IMG/VR virus record: IMGVR_UViG_3300013121_000033
Location: 96,001 to 160,000 of that record
Length of the DNA: 64,000 nt
Origin: a virus
Lineage: Duplodnaviria; Caudoviricetes
Reading direction: 5' to 3' (one strand)
The notes beneath the pieces are model-generated. The model had not been told where the DNA came from. It made no database searches and saw nothing but the letters and a program-made list of their open reading frames with translations. Position numbers and translations under genes: made by a program. Each line of letters opens with the position of its first letter. Within the stretch, counting starts at the first letter, position 1. Shown piece by piece: positions 2,982-61,831 of this stretch.

Positions 2982-4033
2982 GCGACCACCGCCCCGGCGG
3001 GCACATCCATGGTGAGAGTGGCGCGGCTGGCGGTTCGGTACTCGCCGTCACCCATGCGGGCCTTCGAATGGGCCGAGTTGAACCGGAGGGGGAACACACG
3101 GGCGTCGAACGGGAAGGGACCGTCAGGGGCGTCGAGTTCGCATTCGGTGGTGCCGTCACCGGTCGTGACCGGGCGAGTGACGTAGCGGCGGAGGTACATG
3201 ATGTTCGACCAGAACCCGGTCATTTCGTCGGGTGCCGCGGAACCGTCGGGGTACACGTCGTGCGCGACCCACAGGTCGAAGTCCAGGTCGTCGAGCATGT
3301 CCGTCTTGGTTGGGAACGTGGCGCGACCCGTTTCGCCGGACACGTTGCGGGAGTGGATTCTGTAGTTCGGGTCACGGGTGAGGTCCCACAGGTCGTGGAT
3401 GTTCCACGCCGGGGTGTGCATCGGGATGTCGTTGACGGTGAGTAGCAGCAGGTCGTCGCAGCAGCCGGGGGAGGGGCCGACAGGGTCGGGGATCGTCATG
3501 GTGGCGAGGTCGTCGGCGGTGACGAGCGTCCCGAGGGGCAGGAAGACGTCGAAGGTGACCATCCACGCGCGGCGAAAGATGCCGTCCCCCATCATGACCT
3601 GTGCTTTGCGGCGGCCGAAGACCAGGCTGCCGGGGATCACGGGGTGCGTGTAGTCACCTGTTGGGGTGGCGAGCGTCGCTGACTTGGTACCGTCGTCGCT
3701 GTCGTCGATCGTCGACACGGCCGACGTGATGAGCGTGCGGAACAGGTTGAGGTTCGCCCAGAACCCTTGCTCGTCGTCGCTGTACTGGACGCCGTCGGGG
3801 TCGACCTCACCGGTAATCCATGCGGTGAGGGTAACCGTGGCCGAGTCGAGGTTGAACGGGTAGGTGACCCGGCCGGACGCGTGAGGAACCACTGTTTCTT
3901 CGACCAGGTATTCGGGGTCGAGCGCGAGTGCCCACAGGTCGAGGACGTTCCATGCCGGGGTGTGCAACGACGTGGCCCCCATTGTGAGGGCGAGTCCTGA
4001 TCCGTCGCAGCATGGGTCCCACGGTGCGGCCAT
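2978..4033 (-). CDS. Distal tail (Dit)-like minor tail protein with internal tandem duplication
   Basis: Directly downstream of TMP; two homologous halves (LHTPAWNVLDLWAL / MHTPAWNIHDLWDL; GFWANL / GFWSNI; MGDGIFR / MGDGEYR). Confidence 0.7.
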   Translation of the reverse strand: MAAPWDPCCDGSGLALTMGATSLHTPAWNVLDLWALALDPEYLVEETVVPHASGRVTYPFNLDSATVTLTAWITGEVDPDGVQYSDDEQGFWANLNLFRTLITSAVSTIDDSDDGTKSATLATPTGDYTHPVIPGSLVFGRRKAQVMMGDGIFRRAWMVTFDVFLPLGTLVTADDLATMTIPDPVGPSPGCCDDLLLLTVNDIPMHTPAWNIHDLWDLTRDPNYRIHSRNVSGETGRATFPTKTDMLDDLDFDLWVAHDVYPDGSAAPDEMTGFWSNIMYLRRYVTRPVTTGDGTTECELDAPDGPFPFDARVFPLRFNSAHSKARMGDGEYRTASRATLTMDVPAGAVVA

Positions 4034-7000
4034 CAGCCGGACCTTTCATCGACCGGTCGACCGGTACGGCGGATGCGGCGCATCGTACGGGCGAGGTTGC
4101 GGGCATCGCTGCCGCGCGGACCGCCTTCGGGGACGACGACGTCTCCGAAGGTCAGACCGCCCTGGCCGTTCGCCGCGAGCAGCGACCGAATCGCCCGGAG
4201 CATCGCGACGACTTCCGGGTCGGTCGCTGGGACCGCTTGGACGACGGGCTGTGCGATGACGGTGATGTTGCCCTGACCGTCGCTACGGACAGGGGCGTCA
4301 GGCCACGACGGCAGAGCGTTTGTCGCCGGGGTCGCCGCCGCTGCGATCGCTTGTGCCGCAGCGTCGACAGCGGCCTGCTGCGAGCGGATACCGATAGCGA
4401 GGCCGCGTGACACGTTCTCGCCGATGTCCATGGTGACCTTCGACGGGGAGTTGATCCCGAGGGCTTCCCGGATGATGGCCGCTACGCGGGACGCCATGTT
4501 CGTGACAGCGACCTCCACATCGGGTTGGATCATTTCCAGCCCGGCGACGATGCCGCGGCCGATGGCAGTGCCGATGGCAGTGCCACCAGCGGCGGCGCGA
4601 ACGGTCAGAGCGAGGAACGAGACAGCGAGGACGGCCGCCAACGGGTCGGCCGCGGTCGCAGCCGTCACCGCTGCGGCGGCGAACCCCACCGTGAGCCCCC
4701 CGATGAACGCGGCGGTGATCCCGGCGGCTGCCGCCCCGGCCGTCACCGCTGCCGTCGCCCCGAACGATTGGAGCGCTGCGAGGAACAGGGGCTCGACGAA
4801 CACCACTCCACTGGTTGCCGCCGCGCCGAAAGCCCGGCCGATCCCCTCGCCCTGCGCGCTGGCGATGGGAATGGCAACGGAGGCGGCAGCGAGGAACCCG
4901 GAGGCGAGGCGGGCGGCCAACACCAGAGCGAAGACCGGTGACAGAGCCGCGCCGCGAACACCGCTAGCGAACTCGCCCCCGATGGCCTCACCGGCGGCAG
5001 CGGCGGCTCCCGATGCTTGAGCTTGGACCGACTGGAACGCGACGATCAGGGACAGGGACAGGGCCGCTCGGATCAGGGCGGCGGGAACCGCCGAATCACG
5101 GAGGGTGATAGCGAACGCCTGACCGATGCTGAACCCGGCGGCGGCTGCAACCGGGGCGACAACGGAGGCGATCGTTGCGTACTGCCCGATGAGAGTCGCG
5201 GTGGTGTCCGCCACGGCGATCCCGTAGCGGGACGATTCGACGACGGCCCCGCTGAACACCGACCCGATCGTCGATCCTGCTGTTTCGGCGAAGAGTGCCG
5301 ACTGCTCGGCGACGGCGACGAAGACGGCGACGACTTCCGCTGCGACGGCGTCGCCGTTCACGACTGCCGCGTCGTGCAGGTTGTCGGAGAACGACTCTCC
5401 GATGAGGGTTCCCGTTGAAACGGCTGTCGGGACGACCGAGTTGGCGATGACAACGAACCCGGCGATGAGCCCAACGGTGACGACGAACGCTCCGTTCTCG
5501 GTGACCGCCTCGCGCAGATTCGCAGCGAACGCTCCGCCGATCGACTGGCCTGCGGCCGAGGCGACCGGAAGGGTCGACGCTGCGATGTCGATGATGAACC
5601 CGGCGACCGCTGCATCGGCCGCTACAGCGTTGGCGTTGCCGCCGGACGTGATCGAGTTGAGCATCCCGGAGATGAATGTGCCTCCGAGGCTTGCGCCCGC
5701 TTCGGTCTGGCCGCCAGCAGACCCGACAGCGGCGACGAACGCGTCGGCGATCACCTTGGCTGCCGCCTCGATGTCCCCCTTGCGGGTCGTGATTGCCTGA
5801 GTGAGGGAGTCGATGAACGCGTCGGCGGTACCGGTGCCAGCGGTTGCTGCGGATGTCGCGACGCCGGGTGCCGCAGTGTCGATCGCGGTGGATGCCGCGT
5901 CGGCGACCCCGGTAGCGGCGCCGCTGACGGCGCCCTGGGAACTTTCGATGCCAGCAGCGAAGGACTCGCCAACCGCTGCGCCTTGGGATAGGACGCTGTC
6001 GCGAGCGGACTGCACCGCCGATGCGATCGCCGACTTCTGGCGGTCGGCGAGTTCCCCGCCCTCACGGGCGGCGTTGCGTTGCCCCGGTCGGATGTCCTGA
6101 CCAAGCTGCCGGTCGTCAAGGTTGCCAAGCACCTTGGACAGGTCGAGGGAGTTCCGAATGGCGTCAGCGATCCCGGACTGCGCCGCTGTGATCCGATTCT
6201 CGACGTTCTCCTTGGTCGCAGTGAGGGAGTCGTCGATGACCTTCACCCCGGCGGCACCCTGGTTGTTCAGGTAGGTCCGCATCGCGTCGAACTGTGCGGG
6301 GTCAGTGATCTTGGCGACGATCTCGGCGACGTTGCCGAACTGTGCGTCCTCCAAGAGCCGAACGAGTTCCAACTGCTCGGCCTTGAAGTTCAGGTCGTCG
6401 ACCGCCTTGCGGAACGCCCCCTCGATGTCGACCGCGTTCTTGAGGTCGAGGGCCTTCTGCAACTCAGTGTTGAACGACGCCTTCAACCCGGGCGACATGG
6501 CTTTGAGTTCCGCCTCGACCTGACGGAACGCTTCAACGGGGAGAGAGGCGACGGCGTCAGCGAACGCTTCCATCCCGGAGTCACGAAGGTTGAGAACCGC
6601 GGTCGCCTGACGGGTCGTGGTCTTGATGTCGTCGATGGCGAGCAGCAACGCGCCCTTCAAGTCCTTCGCTGACCGTTGTGCTTCGTCGGCGGCCTCATCG
6701 GCCTTTACCTTGGCCTTGTCGATGGTAAAGAAGTCCTCGGGGTCGAACGACCCGGTGATCCCACCCTTGGCCTTATCCTTGGACGTGTCGAGGAAGCTAG
6801 AAATGCTGAGCGGTTCGATCTTGAGGGACTTGGACAGGTCGAACGTCGGGCCTTCGGTAAGGCGCTTTTGGAGGTCGTCGATGAGCGCGAGGCTTTGCTT
6901 GAACGACTTAGTTGTTCCAGTGACCTGACCTGCGGTCCGCTGTGCCTGGTTCCCGAACTGAGCCATTCCACTTGTAGCCCCGTCAAGACTGGCCTGGTAC

Positions 7001-16026: not shown

Positions 16027-18327
16027 ATCACCCCGACCGACGAGCAGCAGGAAGCGATCGACCTGTACCGCAAGGGCGACACCATGGTCGTCGAAGCGCT
16101 CGCCGGGACCGGCAAGACCTCCACTGCGATCCTGATGTGCGAAGCGGAACCTGACCGCAAGGTCACCTACATGGCGTTCAACAAGGCGATCGTGACCGAC
16201 GTCTCCGGCGACCTCCCGTCGAACGCGACAGCGTCGACCGTGCACAGCCTCGCATTCCGGGTGACCGGCACCCGGATGCGTCACCGGCTCAACTCGCCCC
16301 GCATGCTCTCCAAGGACATCGCCCGCATGCTCGGCGTCCGGCCGATCACAGTCGACACCGGCGGCGGGTCCAAGTCGCTGTCCGACAGCTACCTCGCCTC
16401 GCTCGTCATGCGAGCACTCAAGGGGTTCGCCGCCTCGGCTGACACCGAGCCCGGACGCCACCACTTCCCCTACATCGACGGCGTCGACTTCCCCACCCCC
16501 CAGGGTCAGCGCGGCTGGCGGAACAACGACGCCATCCGAGCCGAACTGCTCCCCGCGGTTCGCAAGGCGTGGAGCGACGTCACCGACCCCCGCGGGAAGC
16601 TCACCTACGACCACGCCTACTACCTCAAGGAATGGGCGCTCGGGTCCCCCAAGATCAACTCCGACGTCGTCATGATCGACGAGCGACAGGACTTGTCCGG
16701 CGTCATGATCTCCGTCGTCACCGCACAAACCGACGCACAGGTCGTCCTCATCGGCGACAGCCAGCAGGCCATCTACTGCCAGCCGATTGGCACTTCGGTG
16801 CTCCTCGCAGGACGCCGCAAGGCTGATGCCCGGTCGACCCCGATCGAGAACCTGCGGGTTGGGGACCGAGTCGTGAGCTACGGGGTCTCGTCGTCTCATC
16901 TGCGATGGGCGGGTTCAGAGGTCACCGCCGTGCGTCGCCGCCACTACACAGGCGACCTCGTGGAAATCGAAGCAGACGGGTACCGGAGTTCCTACACAGT
17001 TGACCACCACGTCGTCGCTCGTCTGGGGCATCACAACGACAACCGTCACGTCGTCTACCTCATGCGACGGGACGGGCGATTCCGGATCGGCCGCGTCCCC
17101 TGGCGCTACACCTCGCAAGGTGGCATGTGGGGTCCGGGACACCGGGCATCCCGAGAGGGTGCCGACGGACTGTGGGTCCTCGGGATGTTCGACACACAGG
17201 CCGAGGCCGCCCTTCACGAGTCGCTGTGGTCCTACAGCTACGGGGTGCCACAGGTCTGCTTCGCCAAGCACGGCGACGTCGATCCCGCGGCCTTCTGGGC
17301 CAAGTACGATGGCGACGCCGCTGGGGCCGCCCGGCTGCTCGCCGACTTCGGCCTACTTGTTGACCACCCCCTCTGGGACCCCGCTCAGAGAGGTGTTGGG
17401 CTCCGGCGGCCGTTCGTAACCCGTGCATGCAACCTCGTGGACGGCATGATGGTCGCTGTCGCTGACCGGTTCGAATACGACGCCCACCATCGGCGATACA
17501 TGTCGTGGCCTCAGGCTTGGGTCCCGATCCAGGTCAGCCGGTCACTGTATGACGGAGACGTCGTGTCGATCTCCGTGGCCGACCATCACACCTACGTCGC
17601 CGACGGCATCGTCACTCACAACTCGTGGATGGGCGCCACGGACGCGACCGCTCACTTCCCCGACGCGCCCGTCACGAACCTGACCCAGTCGTTCCGGTTC
17701 GGTCCCGAGGTCGCAGACCAGGCGAACGTGTTCCTCTCGATGCTGACCGATCTGCGGCTCGTCGGGTCGCCGTACATGACGTCGGTCATCGGTCCGGTCG
17801 ACCGGCCTCGGGCGATCCTCACCCGAACGAACGCCAAGGCGGTCAAGATTCTGTTCACGCTGCTCAACCAGGGCGTGAAGGCTGCGATCGTCGGAGGGGC
17901 GAAGGACGTCCTCGCGTTCGCGAAGGCGGCGAAGTCGCTGATGGACACTGGGTGGACGAGCCACCCCGAACTGGCGTGCTTCTCGACGTGGATCGAGGTG
18001 CAAACCTACGTGGACGCCGACGAGATGGGCGGCGAACTCGCACTGCTGGTCAAGCTGGTCGACGAGTTCGGGGTCGACGAGATCATCGACGGGTTGGAGC
18101 GGCAGCCGAGCGAACGTCACGCCGAGACGGTCATCATCACCGCTCACCGGTCCAAGGGACTCGGATACGAGTCGGTCCTCGTCGCCGACGACTTCGTCGA
18201 CCTGACCGACCCCGAGGCGTCCGTGTCGGATGAGGAGATCAGGTTGCAGTACGTCGCCGTGACCCGGGCGAAGCAGGAACTCGACGTGTCGAACCTGCCG
18301 ATCCTCGCCGACGGGGACGACCTGTGA
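16015..18327 (+). CDS. UvrD/REP-like SF1 helicase containing an intein
   Basis: Walker A ALAGTGKT, MIDERQD, GDSQQAIY|SWMGA, LTQSFRFG, TAHRSKGLG, YVAVTRAK. Confidence 0.9.
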   Translation: MDNDITPTDEQQEAIDLYRKGDTMVVEALAGTGKTSTAILMCEAEPDRKVTYMAFNKAIVTDVSGDLPSNATASTVHSLAFRVTGTRMRHRLNSPRMLSKDIARMLGVRPITVDTGGGSKSLSDSYLASLVMRALKGFAASADTEPGRHHFPYIDGVDFPTPQGQRGWRNNDAIRAELLPAVRKAWSDVTDPRGKLTYDHAYYLKEWALGSPKINSDVVMIDERQDLSGVMISVVTAQTDAQVVLIGDSQQAIYCQPIGTSVLLAGRRKADARSTPIENLRVGDRVVSYGVSSSHLRWAGSEVTAVRRRHYTGDLVEIEADGYRSSYTVDHHVVARLGHHNDNRHVVYLMRRDGRFRIGRVPWRYTSQGGMWGPGHRASREGADGLWVLGMFDTQAEAALHESLWSYSYGVPQVCFAKHGDVDPAAFWAKYDGDAAGAARLLADFGLLVDHPLWDPAQRGVGLRRPFVTRACNLVDGMMVAVADRFEYDAHHRRYMSWPQAWVPIQVSRSLYDGDVVSISVADHHTYVADGIVTHNSWMGATDATAHFPDAPVTNLTQSFRFGPEVADQANVFLSMLTDLRLVGSPYMTSVIGPVDRPRAILTRTNAKAVKILFTLLNQGVKAAIVGGAKDVLAFAKAAKSLMDTGWTSHPELACFSTWIEVQTYVDADEMGGELALLVKLVDEFGVDEIIDGLERQPSERHAETVIITAHRSKGLGYESVLVADDFVDLTDPEASVSDEEIRLQYVAVTRAKQELDVSNLPILADGDDL
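16777..17622 (+). mobile_element. Intein (282 aa) in helicase motif III, possible GIY-YIG-like insert
   Basis: Starts Cys (CQPIGT..IENLRVGDRV), block B TVDHHV, ends HTYVADGIVTHN followed by Ser+1; removal restores QAIY-SWMGA. Confidence 0.9.
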
Positions 18328-24063: not shown

Positions 24064-24801
24064 ATGCCGGTCCTGTCGCAGACGGGGCTCGCGAAGGCGT
24101 GGGGGCCGCCGTGCACTGGTGAACGCCTCTCGATCAAGCTGTTCGGCACCGGGGTCGTCACGGTCCGAGCGTCGCTCGGTGACGCCGTCCTCGCGTTCGA
24201 CGCGTGCTGCCGCTACTACAACTACCCGACCCGCCGCATCGACACCGGCGCCTACGCATGCCGCAAGAAGCGGGGCCTGTCTGGCTGGTCGAACCACGCG
24301 TACGCGACGGCCATGGACATCAACTGGCTGTCGAACCTGTACGGCCGGAAGCTCGTCACGGACATGCCCCCCGAGTTCCGGGCCGCGTTCAAAGCGATCC
24401 GCACGAAGAGCGGAGTCCAGGTGTGGGGTTGGGGCGGGGACTGGAAAGGCATCAAAGATGCCATGCATGTCGAGGTCATTTGTTCTCCCGCCGATATCTG
24501 GTCGGGGATCGACCCGGCAACGGTCCCGGGCGGGATGCAGTGGCCGCCGCCACCGCCAGTTACCGGCACGCCGGTCGAGGACGCTCCCCCCGAGCAGGAG
24601 GAAGAGGACATGGTCATCTACCAGCAGAACTACGGGAAGGGGTTCGCGGCGCTGTCGAACGGCGGCTACCTCGTGTACCTCGACTCAGAGCAGTTGGCGT
24701 TCTGGGAGGGCCGGATGAACGTCCCGAAGGAAGTCGTGATCGCACGCGAGTGGGACCTGATCCGTACCGTGCACATCAACGGCCAGTCGGTGCCCCGCTA
24801 G
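24064..24801 (+). CDS. Endolysin, M15-family metallopeptidase
   Basis: SNHAYATAMDIN (SxHxxxxAxD), WGGDW and DAMHVE zinc-ligand motifs. Confidence 0.88.
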   Translation: MPVLSQTGLAKAWGPPCTGERLSIKLFGTGVVTVRASLGDAVLAFDACCRYYNYPTRRIDTGAYACRKKRGLSGWSNHAYATAMDINWLSNLYGRKLVTDMPPEFRAAFKAIRTKSGVQVWGWGGDWKGIKDAMHVEVICSPADIWSGIDPATVPGGMQWPPPPPVTGTPVEDAPPEQEEEDMVIYQQNYGKGFAALSNGGYLVYLDSEQLAFWEGRMNVPKEVVIAREWDLIRTVHINGQSVPR

Positions 24802-24837: not shown

Positions 24838-24911
24838 TGTCCCCAGTCGGATTCGAACCGACGATGACCGGAGTGAAAGTCCGGCGACTTGGACCGCTAG
24901 TCGATGGGGGC
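24838..24911 (-). tRNA. tRNA-Glu(TTC)
   Basis: Cloverleaf; CCGGA-CT-TTC-AC-TCCGG anticodon arm; TTCGAAT T loop; C2:A71 mismatch; no encoded CCA. Confidence 0.9.
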
Positions 24912-24912
24912 T

Positions 24913-24988
24913 TGGCACCGCGCACGAGATTCGAACTCGTAACCTCCGCCGTGAGAAGGCGGTGTGCTGCCAGTTGCACCAGCGCGGC
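24913..24988 (-). tRNA. tRNA-Glu(CTC)
   Basis: CCGCC-TT-CTC-AC-GGCGG anticodon arm; encoded CCA. Confidence 0.92.
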
Positions 24989-25018
24989 TCGAACTACAAG
25001 AGGCCATCGGGTGCAGCG

Positions 25019-25091
25019 TTCCGAGGGGAGGACTCGAACCTCCGGCCTCCCGATCCAGAGTCGGGCGTTCCGCCAACTGAACTACCTCGGA
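25019..25091 (-). tRNA. tRNA-Gln(CTG)
   Basis: TCCGAGG/CCTCGGA acceptor (U1-A72); CCCGA-CT-CTG-GA-TCGGG anticodon arm. Confidence 0.92.
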
Positions 25092-25093
25092 GC

Positions 25094-25136
25094 GGTGGGG
25101 GCTCCCCGAGGCGTGACGCGTTCGGGGAGCTACACC
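25094..25136 (-). promoter_or_regulatory. Putative attenuator/switch hairpin after the leader ORF
   Basis: GGTG-TA-GCTCCCCGAACGCG-TCA-CGCCTCGGGGAGC-CC-CCACC begins at the leader stop codon. Confidence 0.6.
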
Positions 25137-25189
25137 TGGCGCTGCGGCCGACGGCCGGTGCGCTCTCGATGTTCTCGACGCCGAAGCAT
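25130..25189 (-). CDS. Putative leader peptide MLRRREHRERTGRRPQRQV of the Gln/Glu tRNA operon
   Basis: ATG 7 nt after TGTGG-TACCGT; contains GAA, GAG and CAG x2. Confidence 0.55.
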   Translation of the reverse strand: MLRRREHRERTGRRPQRQV

Positions 25190-25194
25190 GCCGG

Positions 25195-25713
25195 TCACGG
25201 TACCACAGCAAGCGGCGACCACGACAAGTCATTCATGGCGTCGAGCAGGACGGCACGGGCAGGCGTCTCGACAGATGCCGGAGGGTCGAGCCAGCCGTCA
25301 GGGTTGAGAACGCTCTGTATCAAGGTGCGGCACCCGCGCTCGGCTGCCCATGCGCCGATGACGATGTGAGCGAGTATCGACGTCGACCCAGACCAACCGC
25401 CGCCCGTGTCGGTGATCCGGGTGTTGACCTCGATGAACGCTTCGCCGGGCCACACGCCGTCTGGTCGGCAGGAGGAGTCGTACTCGGCGAGGTTTCGTTC
25501 GAGCCCGGCATTCACAGTGAACCCCCAGCTTCCCCCGGCGTGCACCCCTTCCGGTATCCACCATTGCCAGGTGCCGCCGAGGTCCGGGTAGTCGTGGTGC
25601 GGGATCGGCTCGACACGGGGGCGGAGAGTGTGGAGCAGGCGGGCGACGGCGTCGCGTAACTCGACCGGGTTCACCGGGTCGAGGAACCGGACGGCGGAGT
25701 CGGGCGCGGTCAC
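25195..25713 (-). CDS. Hypothetical protein
   Basis: GTGA-coupled start. Confidence 0.6.
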   Translation of the reverse strand: MTAPDSAVRFLDPVNPVELRDAVARLLHTLRPRVEPIPHHDYPDLGGTWQWWIPEGVHAGGSWGFTVNAGLERNLAEYDSSCRPDGVWPGEAFIEVNTRITDTGGGWSGSTSILAHIVIGAWAAERGCRTLIQSVLNPDGWLDPPASVETPARAVLLDAMNDLSWSPLAVVP

Positions 25714-26294
25714 GTCCGTCCGAACCCGGGTACCGGGGTGGGCTGCCACGATGGGAGTTGTGGACGATGCGCGGCGATCCACGCCTTGACGCGCTCACGA
25801 ATCGTTGAAGCCGATGGCGGGGTGATGTCGAGCGCCCAGTACAAGGTGCAGTAGTAGGCGACGTCGGCGACGACGCCGACCACTGTCGCAGTACCGGTCA
25901 TGACCGTCTCGTGTCTCGCCGCCATGACCGTTGTCCATGCGTAGAAGAACAGGTCGATGACGAGGAACACGGGTGCGGCGCGCCGGGCGGCGTGGACGAT
26001 GTTGACCGGGATCATGCCGTGACGGTTGGCTTGCCGTTCGACATCACTGAGATGCCGCCAGTAGAGAACACACACGCCGGACCACGCGGCGAACAGGACC
26101 CAATCGCCGACCGAGTCCCAATACTCCGGGGTCATGGCGGTACGGGCTGTCTCGCAGGCGAGGTACACGGTCATCGACACGCGGGTGAGCGTGAAGTTCG
26201 ACCAGCCCGTCACCCGGTGCGCGGCTCGGAGTGCCCGATGGAACCACGGTGCGACGGCGCGGTCGACGCGAGGCAGGTACGGGTGGAGCCTCAT
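25710..26294 (-). CDS. Membrane protein
   Basis: ATGA coupling; about 4 hydrophobic segments. Confidence 0.65.
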   Translation of the reverse strand: MRLHPYLPRVDRAVAPWFHRALRAAHRVTGWSNFTLTRVSMTVYLACETARTAMTPEYWDSVGDWVLFAAWSGVCVLYWRHLSDVERQANRHGMIPVNIVHAARRAAPVFLVIDLFFYAWTTVMAARHETVMTGTATVVGVVADVAYYCTLYWALDITPPSASTIRERVKAWIAAHRPQLPSWQPTPVPGFGRT

Positions 26295-29005: not shown

Positions 29006-30232
29006 TCACGCTGCCTTGCATCGGGTGAGGACCGTCTCGTGGCGGCCCTGGTAGGTGTCGTGCTTCTTGACGGTGCCGGTGAAGGTGATCGGCTCTCCGG
29101 CCTCTCGGGCTTCGTCGGCGGCGTCGGCGAAGCTGGTGGTGCAGCCGGTGAACACCTTGACCCACCCGGCGGTCGTGGCGACCACGATGACCGCCTGTGT
29201 GCCCCACTGGTTCTCGAAGCAGGAGAACCGGGTGACTCGACCGGTCAGCGTGACCCGCTCGCCCTCGGCGCCGACCCAGGCGTCGGGCACCTCGGCGTCG
29301 GCGGCTTCGCGGGCCTTGCGTTCTGCGATCCGGCCCTGCTCCCGGTCCCACGCCGACACTGCCGACACCGCCAGGCCCAGGCCCTTCGGGCGGACCCAGT
29401 CGTTGTCGAGGACGGCGACCAGGTTGGCGAGGTAGTCGTTGCCTTCGGGGTCGATGCTGCGGACCCAGTCGACGATCCGCTGCGCTTCGGCGGCGTGAGT
29501 GCCGCTGTGCAGGTCGTCGCGGGCGGCCTTGACGTCGTCGTCGTCGTAGCTCCTCGGGGTCAGGATCGAGGCGACGTCGGCCTTGGTGGGGGCTTCGAAG
29601 CTGGCGGGCTTCCACCCCCACCGGCGGACCGCGACGATCGCTGCCTCGATCACCACGTTGGTGTCCCACCCCCAGTCGACGTGACCGCCGCCCCAGCCGT
29701 CGTCGGGCTCGTCGAGCAGGTCGGCCGTGACGTCCATGTACCAGATCAGCCGGGCGGGGTCGACACCGAGGTAGTCGCGGACGCAGGTCGTGCCGACCCG
29801 GACCAGGTTGCCGTCGGTGTCGGCGACGACGATGAGCTTGTTGCGGCGCAGGTGGCGGTCGCAGTGGTCGCACACGCTGACGGTGCGGAACGCCTCGGGG
29901 AGGGTGAACCCGTTGACCGAGTTGAGGAGGACGTTCGGGGCGGCGGTGGCGAAGTCGATGGTTCCGGCGAGCTTCCAGTCGCCGGGGAGGGCGACGGGGG
30001 CGACGGTGATGGTGACGTCGTGGACGATCTCCCAGCGGTCGACGGGGTCCGTCTCGGCGCTGACCTTGACGCTGCGGGCGTCGCTGACGGTCAGGGTGAC
30101 GTCGCCGTCGAGGCCCTTCTTCGCGATGCGGTCGTGGAGCTTCGCGACCCGTTCGCGGATCACAGCGACACCGGCGGCCGAAACGGTGGCCGTGGTGACG
30201 CCTTCCTGGTCGGTGGTCTGGTCGTTGTCCAT
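29006..30232 (-). CDS. Hypothetical protein with Zn-binding motif and C-terminal OB-fold-like domain
   Basis: CDHC...VGTTC; C-terminal ITFTGTVKKHDTYQGRHETVLTR; MDND start after the conserved promoter. Confidence 0.75.
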   Translation of the reverse strand: MDNDQTTDQEGVTTATVSAAGVAVIRERVAKLHDRIAKKGLDGDVTLTVSDARSVKVSAETDPVDRWEIVHDVTITVAPVALPGDWKLAGTIDFATAAPNVLLNSVNGFTLPEAFRTVSVCDHCDRHLRRNKLIVVADTDGNLVRVGTTCVRDYLGVDPARLIWYMDVTADLLDEPDDGWGGGHVDWGWDTNVVIEAAIVAVRRWGWKPASFEAPTKADVASILTPRSYDDDDVKAARDDLHSGTHAAEAQRIVDWVRSIDPEGNDYLANLVAVLDNDWVRPKGLGLAVSAVSAWDREQGRIAERKAREAADAEVPDAWVGAEGERVTLTGRVTRFSCFENQWGTQAVIVVATTAGWVKVFTGCTTSFADAADEAREAGEPITFTGTVKKHDTYQGRHETVLTRCKAA

Positions 30233-30270
30233 GCCCACAGGATACCGCCCTGTTGTGGTCACGTCAACAC
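30221..30270 (-). promoter_or_regulatory. Conserved promoter/operator, copy 2
   Basis: TTGACG-17-TATCCT-6-ATGGACAACGAC. Confidence 0.8.
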
Positions 30271-32240: not shown

Positions 32241-32280
32241 GGCGTCGAACCCTACCCTTGCGTTGTGGTCACGTCAACGC
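32229..32280 (-). promoter_or_regulatory. Conserved promoter/operator, copy 3
   Basis: TTGACG-17-TAGGGT-8-ATGGACAACGAC; GCGTTG-N9-CAACGC. Confidence 0.8.
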
Positions 32281-32328
32281 TTCGGAAAGTCGGGCGGTGG
32301 GGTTGACTCGGGTGGTACCGTGGCCCTC

Positions 32329-32376
32329 GTGCGTTCCCGTCTCCAACAGCGTCGCTGGCCTCAGCCACCGCTCTAG
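32329..32376 (+). CDS. Putative leader peptide MRSRLQQRRWPQPPL of the Pro/Trp/Gln tRNA operon
   Basis: GTG 7 nt after GGTGG-TACCGT; contains CAA, TGG, CCG (also CAG, CCT, CCA). Confidence 0.55.
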   Translation: MRSRLQQRRWPQPPL

Positions 32377-32421
32377 CTCCACCGGAACGCGCCCAAGATC
32401 ACCCGAGCGTCCCGGCGGAGC
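32376..32421 (+). promoter_or_regulatory. Putative attenuator hairpin after the leader ORF
   Basis: GCTCC-ACCGG-AACGC...GCGT-CCCGG-CGGAGC starting at the stop codon. Confidence 0.55.
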
Positions 32422-32488
32422 GGAAGCCCGCACGGGGCTCTCTTGGAGTGGTGGCCGAAGCCAGCCGACAAGGGACCCCCGGACACCA

Positions 32489-32564
32489 CGGGGTGTAGCC
32501 CAGCGGCCAGGGCACCTGCTTCGGGAGCAGGGGATCGGGAGTTCGAGTCTCCCCACCCCGACCA
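32489..32564 (+). tRNA. tRNA-Pro(CGG)
   Basis: CGGGGTG acceptor; CCTGC-TT-CGG-GA-GCAGG anticodon arm; encoded CCA. Confidence 0.93.
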
Positions 32565-32583
32565 GGTCGCCCCACCGAAACGA

Positions 32584-32656
32584 AGGGGTGTAGCTCAGCG
32601 GCGAGAGCAGCGGCTTCCAAACCCGCGTGTCGGGGGTTCGAATCCCTCCACCCCTG
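32584..32656 (+). tRNA. tRNA-Trp(CCA)
   Basis: AGGGGTG/CACCCCT acceptor with G73; GCGGC-TT-CCA-AA-CCCGC (C31:C39 mismatch). Confidence 0.9.
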
Positions 32657-32660
32657 CTGA

Positions 32661-32733
32661 TGGCCCGTAGTTCAACTGGCGGAACGCCCGACTTTGGATC
32701 GGGAGGTTGCAGGTTCGAGCCCTGCCGGGCCAG
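32661..32733 (+). tRNA. tRNA-Gln(TTG)
   Basis: TGGCCCG/CGGGCCA acceptor; CCCGA-CT-TTG-GA-TCGGG anticodon arm. Confidence 0.93.
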
Positions 32734-33132
32734 CTACACCGACGCTGCGCGTGCGCGGTCGTTCTCGTGGGTGACGTCGCAGGCGGGGCACTGGCCTTCG
32801 GGTTTGATGTCGCGGGTCAGGTGGTTGTGGCGGGTCGGGTCGACCCTGCCTTGGATCGAGATGGGGACGGCGCTCTTGAGGAACGAGAGCAGCTTCGCAG
32901 CGGTGTGTTCCATGTCGCTGACGCTGCGCCTCTCCTCGATGTCTATGGACAGGCGGCGGGCCTTGCGGAACGCGGCACCGAGGGACGCCATGTCGAGGGC
33001 GCCGTGGACGACGACGTTGCGGCCGAGGGGGGCGTCACCGGGGTCCTCGTTGATCGCGGCGGCCAGGTCGCGTGGCGACCAGGGACCGGGGTCGTCGACC
33101 TCGATGAGCAGGATGCGGCGGGGCTTGTCCAT
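32734..33132 (-). CDS. Hypothetical protein
   Basis: MDKPRRILL start 8 nt after TAACGT; C-terminal H.H..CPACD motif. Confidence 0.6.
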   Translation of the reverse strand: MDKPRRILLIEVDDPGPWSPRDLAAAINEDPGDAPLGRNVVVHGALDMASLGAAFRKARRLSIDIEERRSVSDMEHTAAKLLSFLKSAVPISIQGRVDPTRHNHLTRDIKPEGQCPACDVTHENDRARAASV

Positions 33133-58405: not shown

Positions 58406-58449
58406 CGCCGTGTCTATTTGGTATGAGGATGGCAGGCGTTCCTGCCAAG

Positions 58450-58525
58450 TGGCACGAGGGGGATTCGAACCCCCGACCTCCGGGTTATGAGCCCGGCGAG
58501 CACAACCAGACTGCTCCATCGTGCT
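58450..58525 (-). tRNA. Initiator-type tRNA-fMet(CAT)
   Basis: CCGGG-CT-CAT-AA-CCCGG (three G-C pairs); 1:72 mismatch (A:C); TATCAT -10 just upstream. Confidence 0.9.
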
Positions 58526-58562
58526 CCGACGGATGATAGCGGTTCCGTCACTTCGTCACTCG

Positions 58563-59087
58563 TCATTTCCACTTCGGGGTGTTCAACTCCGCCATCCGGC
58601 CGAGACAGGCGCCTTGGCCGATCTGTGTCCAGGTGACCGGCCCGTACGTCGTGACCGGGGCGACGGCTCGGACGGCGCTGTCGGCGGCTTCGATGTCGTC
58701 GGGGATGCCCTCGAAGAGCCGGTAGTACCGGGCCGACACGATCTCCTGAACCCATGGTCCCGGTGGGTCGATCAGGCGGCGACCGGCTACTTCGATCGGT
58801 TCCACGATCGGGGTCGGCGGCCTGGCTTCGTAGTGCACCCAGAACCGCAGCGGTCGGTCCAGGTCCGTGATCCCGTTGTGGACGACCAGATCGTCGAGGT
58901 CATCGGCAGGGATACGGATGCCCCACACCTCTCCGGCGAGGTAGACGGGAAGGTCACCGGTCGGGGCGACGCCACGACAGACTCCACACGCGCCAACGGC
59001 GAGCGACGACGGGTCGGTGAACGCCAGGCTTGTGACCAGGCATGTGCACCGGTGGAACGGCACAGCGAGCCCGTACCTCGACTTCAT
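58563..59087 (-). CDS. Hypothetical protein
   Basis: TGATG-coupled to rtcB. Confidence 0.6.
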   Translation of the reverse strand: MKSRYGLAVPFHRCTCLVTSLAFTDPSSLAVGACGVCRGVAPTGDLPVYLAGEVWGIRIPADDLDDLVVHNGITDLDRPLRFWVHYEARPPTPIVEPIEVAGRRLIDPPGPWVQEIVSARYYRLFEGIPDDIEAADSAVRAVAPVTTYGPVTWTQIGQGACLGRMAELNTPKWK

Positions 59088-60253
59088 CAGGTCCCCTTGT
59101 AGTTGAGCAGAGCGGTGAGGCGGTGCAACGGGCGGACCAGGTCGGCCTGTGCGTCCATCACGTTCTCGATGTCCTTGTAGGCGCGGGGGTCCTCGTCGAT
59201 CAGCTTTGCAGCGTCGCTGTCGTTCCACGCCTTCCCGGCCATCGCGTCGCGCAACCCGTCGAGATCGAGGTTGCGGCGCGCCTGGTTGCGGGACATGCGA
59301 CGCCCGGCGCCGTGCGAGCACGACTCGTAGCTGGCCGGGTTCCCGAGCCCTTCGACGATGTAGCTCCCGGTCGCCATCGACCCGGGGATGATCCCGAGGT
59401 CGCCGACCCCGGCACGGATCGCGCCCTTCCTTGTGACCCACAGGTCGACACCGTGGTGGTGCTCGCGGGTGCAGTAGTTGTGGTGGCACTGGATCGTGCG
59501 GACGGGTTCGAAGTGGTAGCCGACCGCTCCGGCGACCTGAACGAGGACGGCGTCGAGCATCATCTGCCGGTTCAACGCGGCGTAGTCCTGCGCCCACAGC
59601 ATCGCCGCGATGTACGCGTCGAACTCCGGGGTGCCCTCTACGAGGTAAGCGAGGTCAGGGTCGGGGATGTCCGCGAGCGCAGCGCCCATCGCCCTCTCTG
59701 CGGCGGCGACGTGGACGTCTGCCAACTGCTTGCCAACCCCGCGGCTCCCCGAGTGCAGCACAACCCACACCCGGTTGCGTTCGTCGGCGCACACCTCAAC
59801 GAAGTGGTTGCCGGACCCGAGCGACCCGATCTGTGTGTCCATCGCCGTTTCCATCCGGTCGGTCATCCCCTCAGGGCGGCGGGCGAACAGGTCGGCAACT
59901 TCGGCGCTGTGGGTGCGCCGGTCGTGACCGCGGCCCGCCCCGGCAGGGACGACAGCGGCGATCGCCGAGTGGAGCTTCCCAAGGTCGTCGGGGAGCAGGT
60001 CCACCGTGAACGGACACTCGACGGCCCCCATCCCACATCCGATGTCGACGCCGACGGCGGACGGGATGACCGCGGCTTCGGTCGCGATGACCGATCCGAC
60101 GGTCGCGCCAAACCCGAAGTGTGCGTCGGGCATGAGCGCGATCGGTTCGTGGACCACGGGGAGTGACGCGCTGTCGGCGGCCTGGCCGATCGTCTTGTCG
60201 TCGAGGTCGGCTGCCCAGGAGAGGACGTTCGGGCGGATGAAGGTGGGGGCCAT
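59087..60253 (-). CDS. rtcB: RNA ligase RtcB
   Basis: MPDAH, VGVDIGCG, GSGNHF, HSGSRG, HHNY, RKGA, PGSM, SCSHGAGR, DEDPRAYK. Confidence 0.95.
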   Translation of the reverse strand: MAPTFIRPNVLSWAADLDDKTIGQAADSASLPVVHEPIALMPDAHFGFGATVGSVIATEAAVIPSAVGVDIGCGMGAVECPFTVDLLPDDLGKLHSAIAAVVPAGAGRGHDRRTHSAEVADLFARRPEGMTDRMETAMDTQIGSLGSGNHFVEVCADERNRVWVVLHSGSRGVGKQLADVHVAAAERAMGAALADIPDPDLAYLVEGTPEFDAYIAAMLWAQDYAALNRQMMLDAVLVQVAGAVGYHFEPVRTIQCHHNYCTREHHHGVDLWVTRKGAIRAGVGDLGIIPGSMATGSYIVEGLGNPASYESCSHGAGRRMSRNQARRNLDLDGLRDAMAGKAWNDSDAAKLIDEDPRAYKDIENVMDAQADLVRPLHRLTALLNYKGT

Positions 60254-60270
60254 CTGGCGAGCCTTGCAGG

Positions 60271-60852
60271 TCAGGTCGGTTCGGTTCCGAGTGATTTGAC
60301 GGTCGCGTGGACGGTCGTCATGTCGACTGTCCAGCGTGCCGGGGCGGTGGGGACGGTCCCGGGTTGCTCGGGGCGCCACACCCACGAGACGTTCTTGTGG
60401 GTGACGGTGGCGTCCGTGGATGCCGGGTCGTCCGGCGCGAACGAAGGACCGAACACGAGCGCGAGGCACGCTGCCTCTGTTTCGAGCGCGCCAGCCTGCG
60501 CTCTCGACGCGGCGAGGTGCGCGGTGAGCTTGGCGACCTGATCCGAGAGGTCCGCTACGACCGCTTCCGTTTCGGACGCCTTGATGCGCTCAGCCGCGAG
60601 GGCGCCGATCATCGCTTCGTACACGTCGTCGTACTCGGTGAGAGCACGGCGCATGGCGCCGATCAGCGCCTCTCTGTCGGCCACGAACCCGTTGCGGGCA
60701 ACGGTCGGCTTGTACCGCTCCCACAGCGTCAGCAGGGCGTACTTGAGGTCGCTACGGGCGTGGGCTTCCTCCGGGTTCTTCTCGGGGACCGCTGGTATCG
60801 CTGGCGCCTTGAACCCCGTACGAAGGACCGCTTTGACGTTGTCGTTGACCAT
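60271..60852 (-). CDS. Hypothetical coiled-coil protein (MVND start)
   Basis: Follows promoter copy 8. Confidence 0.7.
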   Translation of the reverse strand: MVNDNVKAVLRTGFKAPAIPAVPEKNPEEAHARSDLKYALLTLWERYKPTVARNGFVADREALIGAMRRALTEYDDVYEAMIGALAAERIKASETEAVVADLSDQVAKLTAHLAASRAQAGALETEAACLALVFGPSFAPDDPASTDATVTHKNVSWVWRPEQPGTVPTAPARWTVDMTTVHATVKSLGTEPT

Positions 60853-60890
60853 CGCACCAGCCTACCGCGGCGTTGACGTCACGTCAACGC
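60841..60890 (-). promoter_or_regulatory. Conserved promoter/operator, copy 8 (perfect palindrome)
   Basis: GCGTTGACGT-G-ACGTCAACGC; TTGACG-17-TAGGCT-6-ATGGTCAACGAC. Confidence 0.85.
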
Positions 60891-60943
60891 TCGGAAAGTG
60901 ATTGACGAGGGTTGGGGGAACCCGGCAAGGTGGATACCTCAAT

Positions 60944-61017
60944 GGGCCGGTAGCTCAAGTTGGTAGAGCACCTGCTTTGCAAGCAGACGGTTGTGGGTTC
61001 GAGGCCCATCTGGTCCA
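60944..61017 (+). tRNA. tRNA-Ala(TGC)
   Basis: G3:U70 pair; TT-TGC-AA loop. Confidence 0.9.
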
Positions 61018-61034
61018 CTAGCTAAGGAAACTTT

Positions 61035-61107
61035 GGGGTTGTAGCTCAGACGGTAGAGCGCTCGCCTGGCTTGCGAGAGGTCCCCGGTTCGACTCCGGGT
61101 AACTCCA
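61035..61107 (+). tRNA. tRNA-Ala(GGC)
   Basis: G3:U70 pair; CTCGC-CT-GGC-TT-GCGAG anticodon arm. Confidence 0.88.
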
Positions 61108-61108
61108 C

Positions 61109-61181
61109 GGACGTGTAGCTCAGCCGGTAGAGCAGCACCATGACAGGGTGAAGGCCCCCGGTTCGAACCCGGGCATGTCCA
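61109..61181 (+). tRNA. tRNA-Val(GAC)
   Basis: GCACC-AT-GAC-AG-GGTGA anticodon arm; A73. Confidence 0.88.
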
Positions 61182-61186
61182 CTCGC

Positions 61187-61261
61187 AGGCGCGTAGCTCA
61201 GATCGGCTAGAGCAGCACTCTCACATGGTGAAGGTCGACGGTTCGAATCCGTCCGTGCCTA
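61187..61261 (+). tRNA. tRNA-Val(CAC)
   Basis: GCACT-CT-CAC-AT-GGTGA anticodon arm; A73. Confidence 0.88.
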
Positions 61262-61831
61262 CTTGACGGCGGGAGATCGTCGTTCGTGCACGGTGTAGAA
61301 CTCGGACAGCGGGACGTTCGTCCACATCGACGCGTCGAACACGGTCGACGTGAACCCGGGGTGGGGGTTGGGGTTCTCGACGGTGGACCGGTCGCAACGC
61401 CACCGGCACCACAGGTACCCGTCGGAGTCGAACACCTCGGCGGGGTAGTGGATCGTGTAGGAGCCGTCGCGTCGACCGCTCGGAACCCACAACTCGTCGG
61501 GCATCCCGACGAGGTCACGGACCGATGGCCGGGGGGGCATGTCGCGGAGGCGCCGGTCGTTCGCCTTCCCCGTCTTGGTTCGACGGTCCGGGACGACGTA
61601 GTAGCTGCCGTCGGCGAGTGGTCCGGCGCGCCGCCACCCCTGCGGGATGGTGCCGTCGTCGGATGCAGGGAACCCTAGGAGGCGGTCGGCGCTGCGGGTG
61701 ATGCCGTCGGCGCCGACCTCGGCAGCCCATCCGAACGCTGCCTCGTTCCAAGCGTCGAGGTCGGCGTGGAGTTTCGCCCACCCGTCGAGTACGGCAGGGT
61801 GGTTCGACTTGTAGGCGCTGTCCTCGTTCAT
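61259..61831 (-). CDS. Hypothetical protein
   Basis: GGAGG RBS; ATGA coupling. Confidence 0.7.
   Translation of the reverse strand: MNEDSAYKSNHPAVLDGWAKLHADLDAWNEAAFGWAAEVGADGITRSADRLLGFPASDDGTIPQGWRRAGPLADGSYYVVPDRRTKTGKANDRRLRDMPPRPSVRDLVGMPDELWVPSGRRDGSYTIHYPAEVFDSDGYLWCRWRCDRSTVENPNPHPGFTSTVFDASMWTNVPLSEFYTVHERRSPAVK

Follow-up and report, generated by a model that had tools for sequence, protein, structure and literature searches.

Short codon-matched reading frames precede tRNA gene clusters of an uncultured phage and may act as leader-peptide sensors of tRNA supply

The DNA analysed here (the window, 64,000 nucleotides [nt]) comprises bases 96001-160000 of the 225,159-base-pair (bp) IMG/VR record IMGVR_UViG_3300013121_000033, the genome of an uncultured phage with 67% GC. 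An operon of three tRNA genes on its minus strand, tRNA-Gln(CTG), tRNA-Glu(CTC) and tRNA-Glu(TTC), is preceded by a 19-codon frame that contains codons read by these tRNAs. An initial annotation of the window proposed that this frame encodes a leader peptide that senses tRNA depletion, and counted only two examples of the design. We found five such units in the whole genome, and this genome-wide pattern makes the original observation much stronger than the single-locus view within the window. The data support the short frame as a real, selected element and not a chance open reading frame (ORF). Below we describe the architecture of promoter, start and frame, its confinement to tRNA clusters, the codon match and its dependence on the frame, the structure of the RNA and the extreme conservation. 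Taken together, the sequence evidence suggests that each unit is a translated, codon-matched, cis-acting leader-peptide sensor of the phage tRNA operon that follows it, a reading to which we assign a probability of about 0.7.

For 50 years it has been debated whether phage tRNA genes are codon supplements or a counter-defence against anticodon nucleases, and to our knowledge there is hardly any information on the control of their expression. If the proposed reading is true, phage tRNA supply would be under ribosome feedback, isoacceptor by isoacceptor, and leader-peptide attenuation would reach beyond amino-acid and synthetase genes to tRNA genes. Such sensors would have a simple sequence signature, and the genome would reveal which tRNAs the phage treats as limiting or attacked.

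The Gln/Glu/Glu unit

Every statement of the initial annotation on the sequence of this locus was borne out base for base, including the promoter, the 7-nt interval, the frame, the hairpin and the tRNAs. The unit consists of the following features.

25195-25782, minus strand: upstream gene, a 195-amino-acid ORF with GC by codon position of 0.68/0.56/0.80 (third-position GC [GC3] 0.80)
25222-25227, minus strand: weak -35-like hexamer TTGTCG, 19 nt upstream of the -10 box, from reading of the sequence
25205-25197, minus strand: extended -10 box TGg-TACCGT of the TANNNT type, from reading of the sequence
25189-25130, minus strand: leader ORF, 19 codons plus stop (ATG at 25189, TAG at 25132-25130)
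25136-25094, minus strand: stop-codon hairpin including outer pairs, from fold prediction and conservation in a relative
25091-25018, minus strand: tRNA-Gln(CTG), first in the operon (ARAGORN; Rfam, 67.3 bits)
24988-24913, minus strand: tRNA-Glu(CTC) (ARAGORN, Rfam)
24911-24837, minus strand: tRNA-Glu(TTC), last in the operon (ARAGORN, Rfam)

The leader frame, MLRRREHRERTGRRPQRQV, contains CAG twice, GAG and GAA. The heptamer GACCGGC separates TACCGT from the ATG at 25189, and the -10 box overlaps the TGA stop codon (25197-25195) of the 195-amino-acid gene, so that it does lie within the end of a real upstream coding sequence, as the initial annotation had cautioned. The spacing of the TTGTCG hexamer to the -10 box is suboptimal, and this stretch is not conserved in the relative. 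The first base of the hairpin is the G of the TAG stop codon. Its core is formed by GCTCCCCGA (25130-25122) and TCGGGGAGC (25109-25101), which pair perfectly over 9 bp around a 12-nt loop, and outer pairs are made by GGTG (25136-25133) with CACC (25097-25094). The tail between the hairpin core and tRNA-Gln is 9 nt long and has no U's. Neither an ORF nor a ribosome-binding site (RBS) was found between leader and tRNA. A longer in-frame ORF from a GTG at 25222 was rejected, since it overlaps the upstream gene's end and no promoter logic supports it.

Five tRNA clusters share one start architecture

ARAGORN identified 26 tRNA genes in eight clusters in the whole genome, with four of the clusters inside the window. 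The 350 nt upstream of each cluster were inspected, and the genome was then searched formally for TANNNT, 7 nt and RTG opening a short frame. Five clusters, which together hold 21 of the 26 tRNAs, share a TANNNT box, an interval of exactly 7 nt, and an ATG or GTG that opens a frame of 15-36 codons. The four units other than Gln/Glu/Glu are listed here; in coordinates marked L003, positions 4726-5124 correspond to genome positions 164726-165124.

32313-32376, plus strand: Pro(CGG)-Trp(CCA)-Gln(TTG) unit, TGGTACCGT at 32313-32321 (-10 TACCGT), GTG at 32329, leader (V)RSRLQQRRWPQPPL
32377-32488, plus strand: structured 112-nt spacer of the Pro-Trp-Gln unit, from folding
32489-32734, plus strand: tRNA-Pro(CGG), tRNA-Trp(CCA) and tRNA-Gln(TTG) (ARAGORN, Rfam)
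L003 5363-5253: unit of His, then Asn-Arg-Lys-Lys-Arg, -10 TACCGT, leader (V)TSADAFAAALRDKLVDAAARRKRRRGLRHRNPAGA
L003 8250-8158: Phe-Thr-Thr-Thr-Arg-Asp-Gly unit, -10 TAGTGT, leader MRSTLTIRTFPTAGPRGITDTTGIGGGRCR
L003 17454-17407: Ser-Ser unit, -10 TATCGT, leader (V)IRSSLSSSSPEGSS

The Pro-Trp-Gln unit is the second locus at which the initial annotation had noted the same layout with other matched codons, and the layout was confirmed there, with 7 nt between the box and the GTG. Its -10 9-mer is identical to that of the Gln/Glu/Glu unit, and its 15-amino-acid leader contains CAA, CAG twice, TGG and CCG.

On the two strands together (450 kb), only 20 sites had the pattern TANNNT-N7-RTG. Five of them fell in the 2 kb upstream of tRNA clusters, each in the sense orientation and less than 250 nt away (Poisson P 4e-8). 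In this phage, some 25 real genes (GC3 0.8-0.94) begin with TANNNT, mostly TAGGGT, followed by 6-8 nt and ATG; therefore, leaderless starts appear to be its normal mode of gene start. Two clusters are not preceded by a leader.

58449-58538, minus strand: tRNA-Met, with TATCAT (58538-58533), 7 nt, then the first base of the tRNA, from reading of the sequence
60944-61262, plus strand: Ala-Ala-Val-Val cluster, where a promoter-like box abuts the first tRNA and leaves no room for a leader (ARAGORN and reading of the sequence)

As tRNA-Met starts 7 nt after TATCAT, it serves as an internal control for the rule that a -10 box plus 7 nt gives the start. The predicted transcript start of this gene coincides with the mature 5' end of the tRNA, in which case RNase P would not be needed there.

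Several other observations were made on the leaders and their surroundings. Every leader but that of Ser/Ser is rich in Arg, which accounts for 8 of the 19 residues in the Gln/Glu/Glu leader, and three leaders start with M/V-R-S-x-L. The initial annotation had raised the Arg-rich leader and the lack of an Arg tRNA as a caveat; this holds for the window, and the whole genome encodes three Arg tRNAs, all of them outside it. The Arg-richness could reflect a constraint of RNA structure, an effect of the nascent chain or cross-sensing of the phage Arg tRNAs. In the third unit, a small opposite-strand gene divides His from the Asn-Arg-Lys-Lys-Arg genes. This gene (L003 4726-5124, plus strand) encodes a Cys/His-rich protein of 132 amino acids, has its own leaderless-type start (TACCGT-N7-ATG) and has no Pfam match; it looks like an inserted gene of the homing-endonuclease type.

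Leader codons match the tRNAs of their own cluster

Anticodons were translated into readable codons by standard wobble rules, and the 110 non-start codons of the five leaders were compared with the tRNAs of each cluster. Codons readable by the leader's own cluster numbered 38, against about 15 expected. The Fisher-combined binomial P value was 2.4e-8 with a six-frame triplet background and 6e-9 with a coding background, both drawn from this genome, and at the amino-acid level the corresponding values were 1.5e-9 and 1.7e-12. When leader codons and cluster anticodons were re-paired, a check that the initial annotation had suggested, the true pairing of the five units of this genome ranked at the top of 120 permutations. 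For each of the 21 tRNAs, the leader of its cluster contained one or more codons that it can read (joint P 2.4e-8 against random stop-free stretches of the same genome). Exact Watson-Crick codons were present for 18 of the 21 versus 8 expected (P ~1e-6), rare ones among them (AAA, 2.2 per 1000 coding codons; CAA, 5.5; ACA, 5.8; AGG, 9.1), and in place of the three that were absent the leaders carried synonyms read by wobble.

The match depended on the reading frame, with 38 matches in frame versus 6 in the +1 and 20 in the +2 frame. Being frame-specific, the match argues for decoding over triplet recognition between RNAs. We also used a test that involves no choice of frame, in which the best ORF in the 220 nt upstream of a cluster was compared with those at 3000 random sites of the genome. 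The five units gave p values of 0.037, 0.014, 0.089, 0.011 and 0.004, and nothing was found by this test at the two leaderless clusters. The Pro-Trp-Gln leader had 5 of 14 codons matched versus 1.2 expected (P 0.004). Jointly, the five units are far beyond chance.

It is hardly credible, then, that these are chance open frames downstream of ordinary tRNA promoters, in DNA of 67% GC where stop codons are few and codons for Arg, Pro, Gly and Ser are frequent. Such an origin has in its favour that short ORFs are plentiful in the genome and that the Gln/Glu/Glu leader alone yields P values of only 0.008-0.037 and is Arg-rich like random GC-rich frames. However, the joint statistics against random frames of the same genome run from 2e-8 to 1e-12, and no permutation surpassed the true pairing.

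The leader is more conserved than its tRNAs

A 418-amino-acid protein encoded in the window (29006-30262) led to a homologue with 56% identity on a 210,569-bp NCBI contig (GCA_040384245.1, JAWVHA010000179.1; R1 below). R1 is syntenic with this phage through the GP88 gene and the 195-amino-acid gene, whose product is 55% identical to its R1 orthologue. Next on R1 comes the Gln(CTG)-Glu(CTC)-Glu(TTC) cluster, as in this phage. There too the cluster is preceded by a -10 box (TATGGT), 7 nt and an ATG frame. Identity between the two loci differed sharply by segment.

End of the upstream gene: 32%
-10 hexamer: 4/6, TANNNT kept
Spacer between -10 box and ATG: 6/7
Leader ORF: 60/60 nt
Hairpin arms: 9/9 and 9/9, outer CACC kept
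Hairpin loop: 8/12 (67%)
Tail: 46%
tRNA-Gln(CTG): 76%
tRNA-Glu(CTC): 68%
tRNA-Glu(TTC): 83%

The longest identical run between this phage and R1 is 76 nt (25195-25120). In the flanking orthologues, amino-acid identity was 59% and identical residues used the same codon in 64% of cases. At these rates the 19 unchanged codons have a probability of ~7e-9, or ~3e-4 if the peptide is taken as fixed. By sequence comparison, purifying selection appears to be stronger on the leader than on the tRNAs and to act at the nucleotide level; a conversion tract limited to the leader would be an odd coincidence. That the leader is more conserved than its own tRNAs in this lineage argues that it matters to the phage.

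The same comparison bears on two alternatives. An identity of 60/60 nt beside spacers that are 32-46% identical again speaks against chance frames. The frames might instead encode small trans-acting peptides, basic or Ser/Thr-rich, which are co-expressed with the tRNAs and act, for example, on translation or the tRNA machinery. The peptide sequence is conserved in R1, and several leaders share the N-terminal M/V-R-S-x-L; yet past these first residues there is no common sequence, and composition follows the tRNAs of each cluster. The lack of synonymous change points to constraint on nucleotides, and peptides of 15-36 amino acids with no predicted fold and no other functional hint make this explanation very improbable.

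No further tRNA cluster was found in the 53 kb of the R1 contig that was walked; hence, the covariation of leaders and clusters rests on the five paralogous units of this phage. R1 is a contig binned in a metagenome-assembled genome, and a further contig in our set (L098) is the same phage as R1. R1 is rearranged relative to the phage analysed here: the 418-amino-acid homologue is followed by homologues of the latter's 187-202 kb region, and the Pro-Trp-Gln and Ser-Ser clusters are not at the syntenic places. Other searches for relatives were largely negative, and R1 is the only one found in the collections covered. A nucleotide search of GenBank phages gave no close match. When four flanking proteins were searched against IMG/VR, three had no relative and GP88 had only ~40%-identical matches on low-GC contigs. 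A scan of Joint Genome Institute (JGI) metagenomes by protein found no relative, and an exhaustive comparison of the 195-amino-acid protein with 1.84 billion representative proteins returned only this phage and R1. Degenerate patterns for the leader, the hairpin and the Glu-Glu junction had 0 matches in viral, metagenome and genome contigs, and contigs with homologues of a 1038-amino-acid protein carried no tRNAs.

RNA structure and candidate output step

The leader folds were compared with dinucleotide shuffles, and four of the five proved far more stable. The z-scores were -2.57 for Gln/Glu/Glu (-46.7 kcal/mol), -4.64 for Pro-Trp-Gln and -1.25 for Ser/Ser, with -3.8 and -4.1 for the further units. 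In all five leaders, the last hairpin ends 5-10 nt before the first tRNA. The Gln/Glu/Glu leader also has a small cUUCGg hairpin at its 5' end.

Each leader was then refolded with the footprint of a ribosome masked at every codon; these are thermodynamic predictions from single sequences. In the Phe-Thr-Arg-Asp-Gly leader, segment 1 is predicted to pair with segment 2, and masking of segment 1 (A site at ACA, TTC or ACC) to free a 13-bp 2:3 helix, which would compete with a 3:4 hairpin followed by UUCUC. In these models this is the textbook layout of a classical attenuator, and it is the only leader with 1:2, 2:3 and 3:4 plus UUCUC. In the Pro-Trp-Gln spacer, a distal strand is predicted to pair with the second half of the ORF in a long helix, which alternates with a local hairpin beside tRNA-Pro. 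For the Gln/Glu/Glu hairpin, melting was predicted only with the second CAG, GTG or TAG in the A site. UUCAUU follows the extended hairpin of R1 and goes part of the way to an intrinsic terminator.

These positions are also what an opposite logic would use, in which the leader works as a gate or in a feed-forward manner. Translation that stays closely coupled as far as the stop codon would keep the hairpin, acting as a terminator or as a block of Rho entry, open, and stalls would uncouple ribosome and polymerase and shut the operon. The 5' arm of the hairpin begins in the stop codon, so that a ribosome on the last codons or the stop is predicted to melt it and one stalled at GAA or GAG is not. 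The UUCAUU after the extended R1 hairpin makes it more terminator-like, and the arrangement resembles coupling control of the pyrBI type. Nevertheless, we consider such a gate unlikely. It would impose positive feedback on scarce tRNAs with no evident benefit, stalls on ACA, TTC and ACC in the classical layout of the Phe-Thr-Arg-Asp-Gly leader favour the 13-bp antiterminator, and the Caulobacter phage phiCbK has canonical units of leader followed by terminator.

A second candidate output involves the tRNAs themselves. CGACCCC of the Ser/Ser unit has two possible partners, a GGGGTCG within the leader and another copy of that heptamer at the 5' end of tRNA-Ser. The leader of the Gln/Glu/Glu unit can, through its 5' end, base-pair with the tRNA-Gln acceptor strand. 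Complementarity between leader and tRNA 5' end was above shuffles in three of the five leaders (1/500, 16/500 and 43/500). The predicted probability of the acceptor stem as a function of ribosome position was suggestive for Gln/Glu/Glu and Ser/Ser and uninformative for the other three.

Such pairing would also suit a structured 5' RNA element that is not translated, whether a determinant of processing or stability, a protein-binding site or a decoy for the tRNA 5' strand, with the frame incidental. The identity of all 60 nt in R1, third codon positions included, the strong fold z-scores, the complementarity in three leaders and the cUUCGg hairpin right at the 5' end are all in line with it. 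However, it leaves unexplained why ATG or GTG stands exactly 7 nt after the -10 box in 5/5 units and why triplets match in a single frame (38 versus 6 and 20). Five unrelated leaders each match their own cluster, and the rare AAA, CAA, ACA and AGG occur only beside the matching tRNA. At Rfam gathering thresholds, the window and L003 contained only tRNAs, with no T-box and no other family. We therefore regard an untranslated element as improbable.

Proposed mechanism and its weighing

On the leader-peptide reading, a host-type promoter (-10 TANNNT) would start a leaderless transcript whose first base is the A or G of ATG or GTG. A 70S ribosome would translate the frame of 15-36 codons, largely made up of codons read by the tRNAs of the same operon; in the Gln/Glu/Glu case these are GAA, GAG and CAG twice, for Glu(UUC), Glu(CUC) and Gln(CUG). 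The pace of the ribosome over the matched codons would select among alternative folds of the structured leader RNA, and the chosen fold would set the number of mature tRNAs from the operon. The logic is most likely homeostatic, with slow decoding signalling scarce tRNAs and leading to more tRNA. In the Gln/Glu/Glu unit, the conserved stop-codon hairpin would be the switch, and a ribosome at the second CAG or the last codons would block its formation. The output could be transcription termination, or pairing of the leader with the 5' strand of the first tRNA that gates folding and RNase P processing. The trigger may be host anticodon nucleases, codon demand or amino-acid supply. Translation of the frame, the sign of the response and the output step are inferences.

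A number of observations weigh against this reading. The Gln/Glu/Glu leader has the weakest single match of the five, with 4 of 18 codons versus 0.8-1.1 expected (P 0.008-0.025; unbiased empirical p 0.037). Arg makes up 42% of it, and tRNAs of the Arg/Lys/His/Asn cluster could read half of its codons. The complete lack of synonymous change in R1 exceeds what codon sensing needs; it indicates constraint at the RNA level, which fits an untranslated element as well. A ribosome stalled at GAA or GAG leaves the Gln/Glu/Glu hairpin intact, so that among the matched codons only the second CAG touches it, and the footprint-masked folds gave no antiterminator helix for this leader. The hairpin has no U-tract (the tail is CCCCACCGC), and a terminator scan found no terminator-like site. 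Mycobacterial RNA polymerase is reported to require a U-tract, and this phage shows no enrichment of canonical sites of hairpin plus U-tract. The thermodynamic models contradict one another in sign from leader to leader, and the Met and Ala-Ala-Val-Val clusters do without a leader. In mycobacteriophage Bxz1, the spacers between tRNAs contained no codon-matched frames. The interpretation in the initial annotation is partly supported: a selected, codon-matched frame, four further units with other matched codons and conservation in R1 speak for it, and the Gln/Glu/Glu hairpin is at most a possible terminator.

A wider interpretation is possible, which we offer tentatively and with less confidence than the leader-peptide reading itself. 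The units may form a bank of independent, codon-barcoded sensors of the tRNA pool, in which each operon measures the decoding speed of its own codons and raises its output when decoding is slow. This would be an inducible, isoacceptor-specific answer to tRNA-cleaving defences or to shocks of codon demand. At least some units (Gln/Glu/Glu and Ser/Ser) would then act not through transcription termination but by freeing the first tRNA's 5' strand from a decoy in the leader, and so control tRNA folding and processing.

Genome context

The recognisable genes, namely a GP88-family protein, a DUF3039 protein and short nucleotide matches to genes of mycobacteriophages and Streptomyces phages, point to a phage of actinobacterial type. 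The 195-amino-acid protein upstream of the Gln/Glu/Glu unit had no Pfam or PHROG match. Two further genes of the window are relevant to the tRNA clusters.

24064-24801, plus strand: convergent peptidase M15 gene after tRNA-Glu(TTC), from a family match
59087-60469, minus strand: RtcB RNA (tRNA) ligase gene (PHROG 1075, 2.8e-127; Pfam RtcB, 2.8e-110)

The RtcB gene is placed between the tRNA-Met and Ala-Ala-Val-Val clusters. Its sequence suggests that the phage may repair cleaved tRNAs; as a link to tRNA damage or anticodon nucleases it is only circumstantial. A search of the phage genome found no genes for a CCA-adding enzyme or peptidyl-tRNA hydrolase. Three of the ARAGORN calls, tRNA-Asn (L003 4613-4687) and the two tRNA-Ser (17181-17373), fell below the Rfam gathering score for tRNA. 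For the long-arm Ser tRNAs this is probably a limitation of the model.

Many genes with leaderless-type starts begin with ATG GAC AAC GAC, giving unrelated proteins a common N-terminus, MDND(T). Such starts lie at window positions 30232, 32240, 40448 and 41939 (minus strand) and, outside the window, at genome positions 46649, 166666, 171328, 193848 and many others. The shared MDND may provide the best context for leaderless initiation, or it may be a signal for processing. A box of ~23 nt, GTCACGTCAACGCT(T)CGGAAAGT, was found upstream of two tRNA clusters (window ~32262-32290 and ~60870-60900, both plus strand). It is the reverse complement of the -35 region (TTGACGTGAC) of divergent MDND-type promoters, and is probably the consensus of the main promoter of the phage.

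Comparison with known systems

The classical ribosome-mediated attenuators include trpL, hisL, pheL, thrL, ilvL (with mixed Ile, Leu and Val codons) and pheM. As in those systems, the units described here have a short upstream frame rich in regulatory codons and a structured leader in which the position of the ribosome would select the fold. The leaders that combine several amino acids recall the multivalent ilv and thr leaders, and the predicted 1:2, 2:3 and 3:4 plus UUCUC of the Phe-Thr-Arg-Asp-Gly leader follows the classical scheme. In contrast, the products here are tRNAs, and the match is at the level of isoacceptors, including rare NNA codons and AGG; because the regulated products are tRNAs, feedback would act on the tRNA pool instead of on the synthesis of amino acids. 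The units also differ in being phage-borne, in their leaderless-type transcripts with no Shine-Dalgarno sequence, and, for Gln/Glu/Glu, in having neither a U-tract nor a recognisable antiterminator.

The T-box is likewise a cis-acting RNA leader, in which a codon-like specifier serves to read the state of one particular tRNA. It differs in that it binds uncharged tRNA directly, with no translation, and controls synthetase and amino-acid genes, whereas the match found here is specific to the reading frame.

Closer to the actinobacterial-type setting of this phage are the leaderless polycysteine short ORFs of mycobacteria, which act as stalling sensors (the 'Cys ribulon'; Canestrari et al., 10.1101/834739). 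There the start codon of an unannotated short ORF, AUG or GUG, is also the start of the mRNA, as predicted here, stalled ribosomes remodel the downstream RNA, and several units answer to one signal (10.1101/834739). The output of the Cys ribulon is the next protein gene, through unmasking of its RBS, whereas only tRNAs follow the leaders of this phage. One amino acid is sensed there, and two to seven codon families would be sensed by each unit here.

Full-text literature searches returned no description of leader peptides or attenuators before tRNA genes, in phages or in cells, in agreement with the initial annotation, which knew of no such description for phage tRNA operons. The phiCbK genome paper mentions neither leader peptides nor attenuators before tRNA genes (PMC3556154), and a paper that proposes phage tRNAs as a counter-defence does not discuss their regulation (PMC10264068).

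In phiCbK itself, we found three frames, each followed by an annotated rho-independent terminator and then by tRNAs. The units as such are not annotated there. None of the tRNAs lacks a matching codon in the leader before it (Fisher P 2.5e-5).

Leader start 48081: MTHLLTRYEREATGLDTTTA; tRNAs Glu, Asp
Leader start 49540: gp083, 45 amino acids, rich in S, L, P, K and A; tRNAs Pro x2, Lys x2, Leu x3, Ala, Ser x2
Leader start 51341: MSKTYRQFVRQIQVV...; tRNAs Phe, Val, Ile x2, Val, Gln x2

The phiCbK units have no sequence homology with those of this phage, come from a different host phylum and use canonical terminators with U-tracts, whereas this phage mostly has a hairpin 5-10 nt before the tRNA and no U-tract. 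They share with it a leaderless-type promoter and a frame of 20-45 codons that covers every downstream tRNA, followed by the tRNA block. As phiCbK is a cultured phage with the same design, the proposal can be tested at the bench there. Judged from sequence, the units of both phages probably represent a form of ribosome-mediated attenuation that we did not find described in print, in which its logic is applied to tRNA operons by means of codon barcodes at the level of single isoacceptors.

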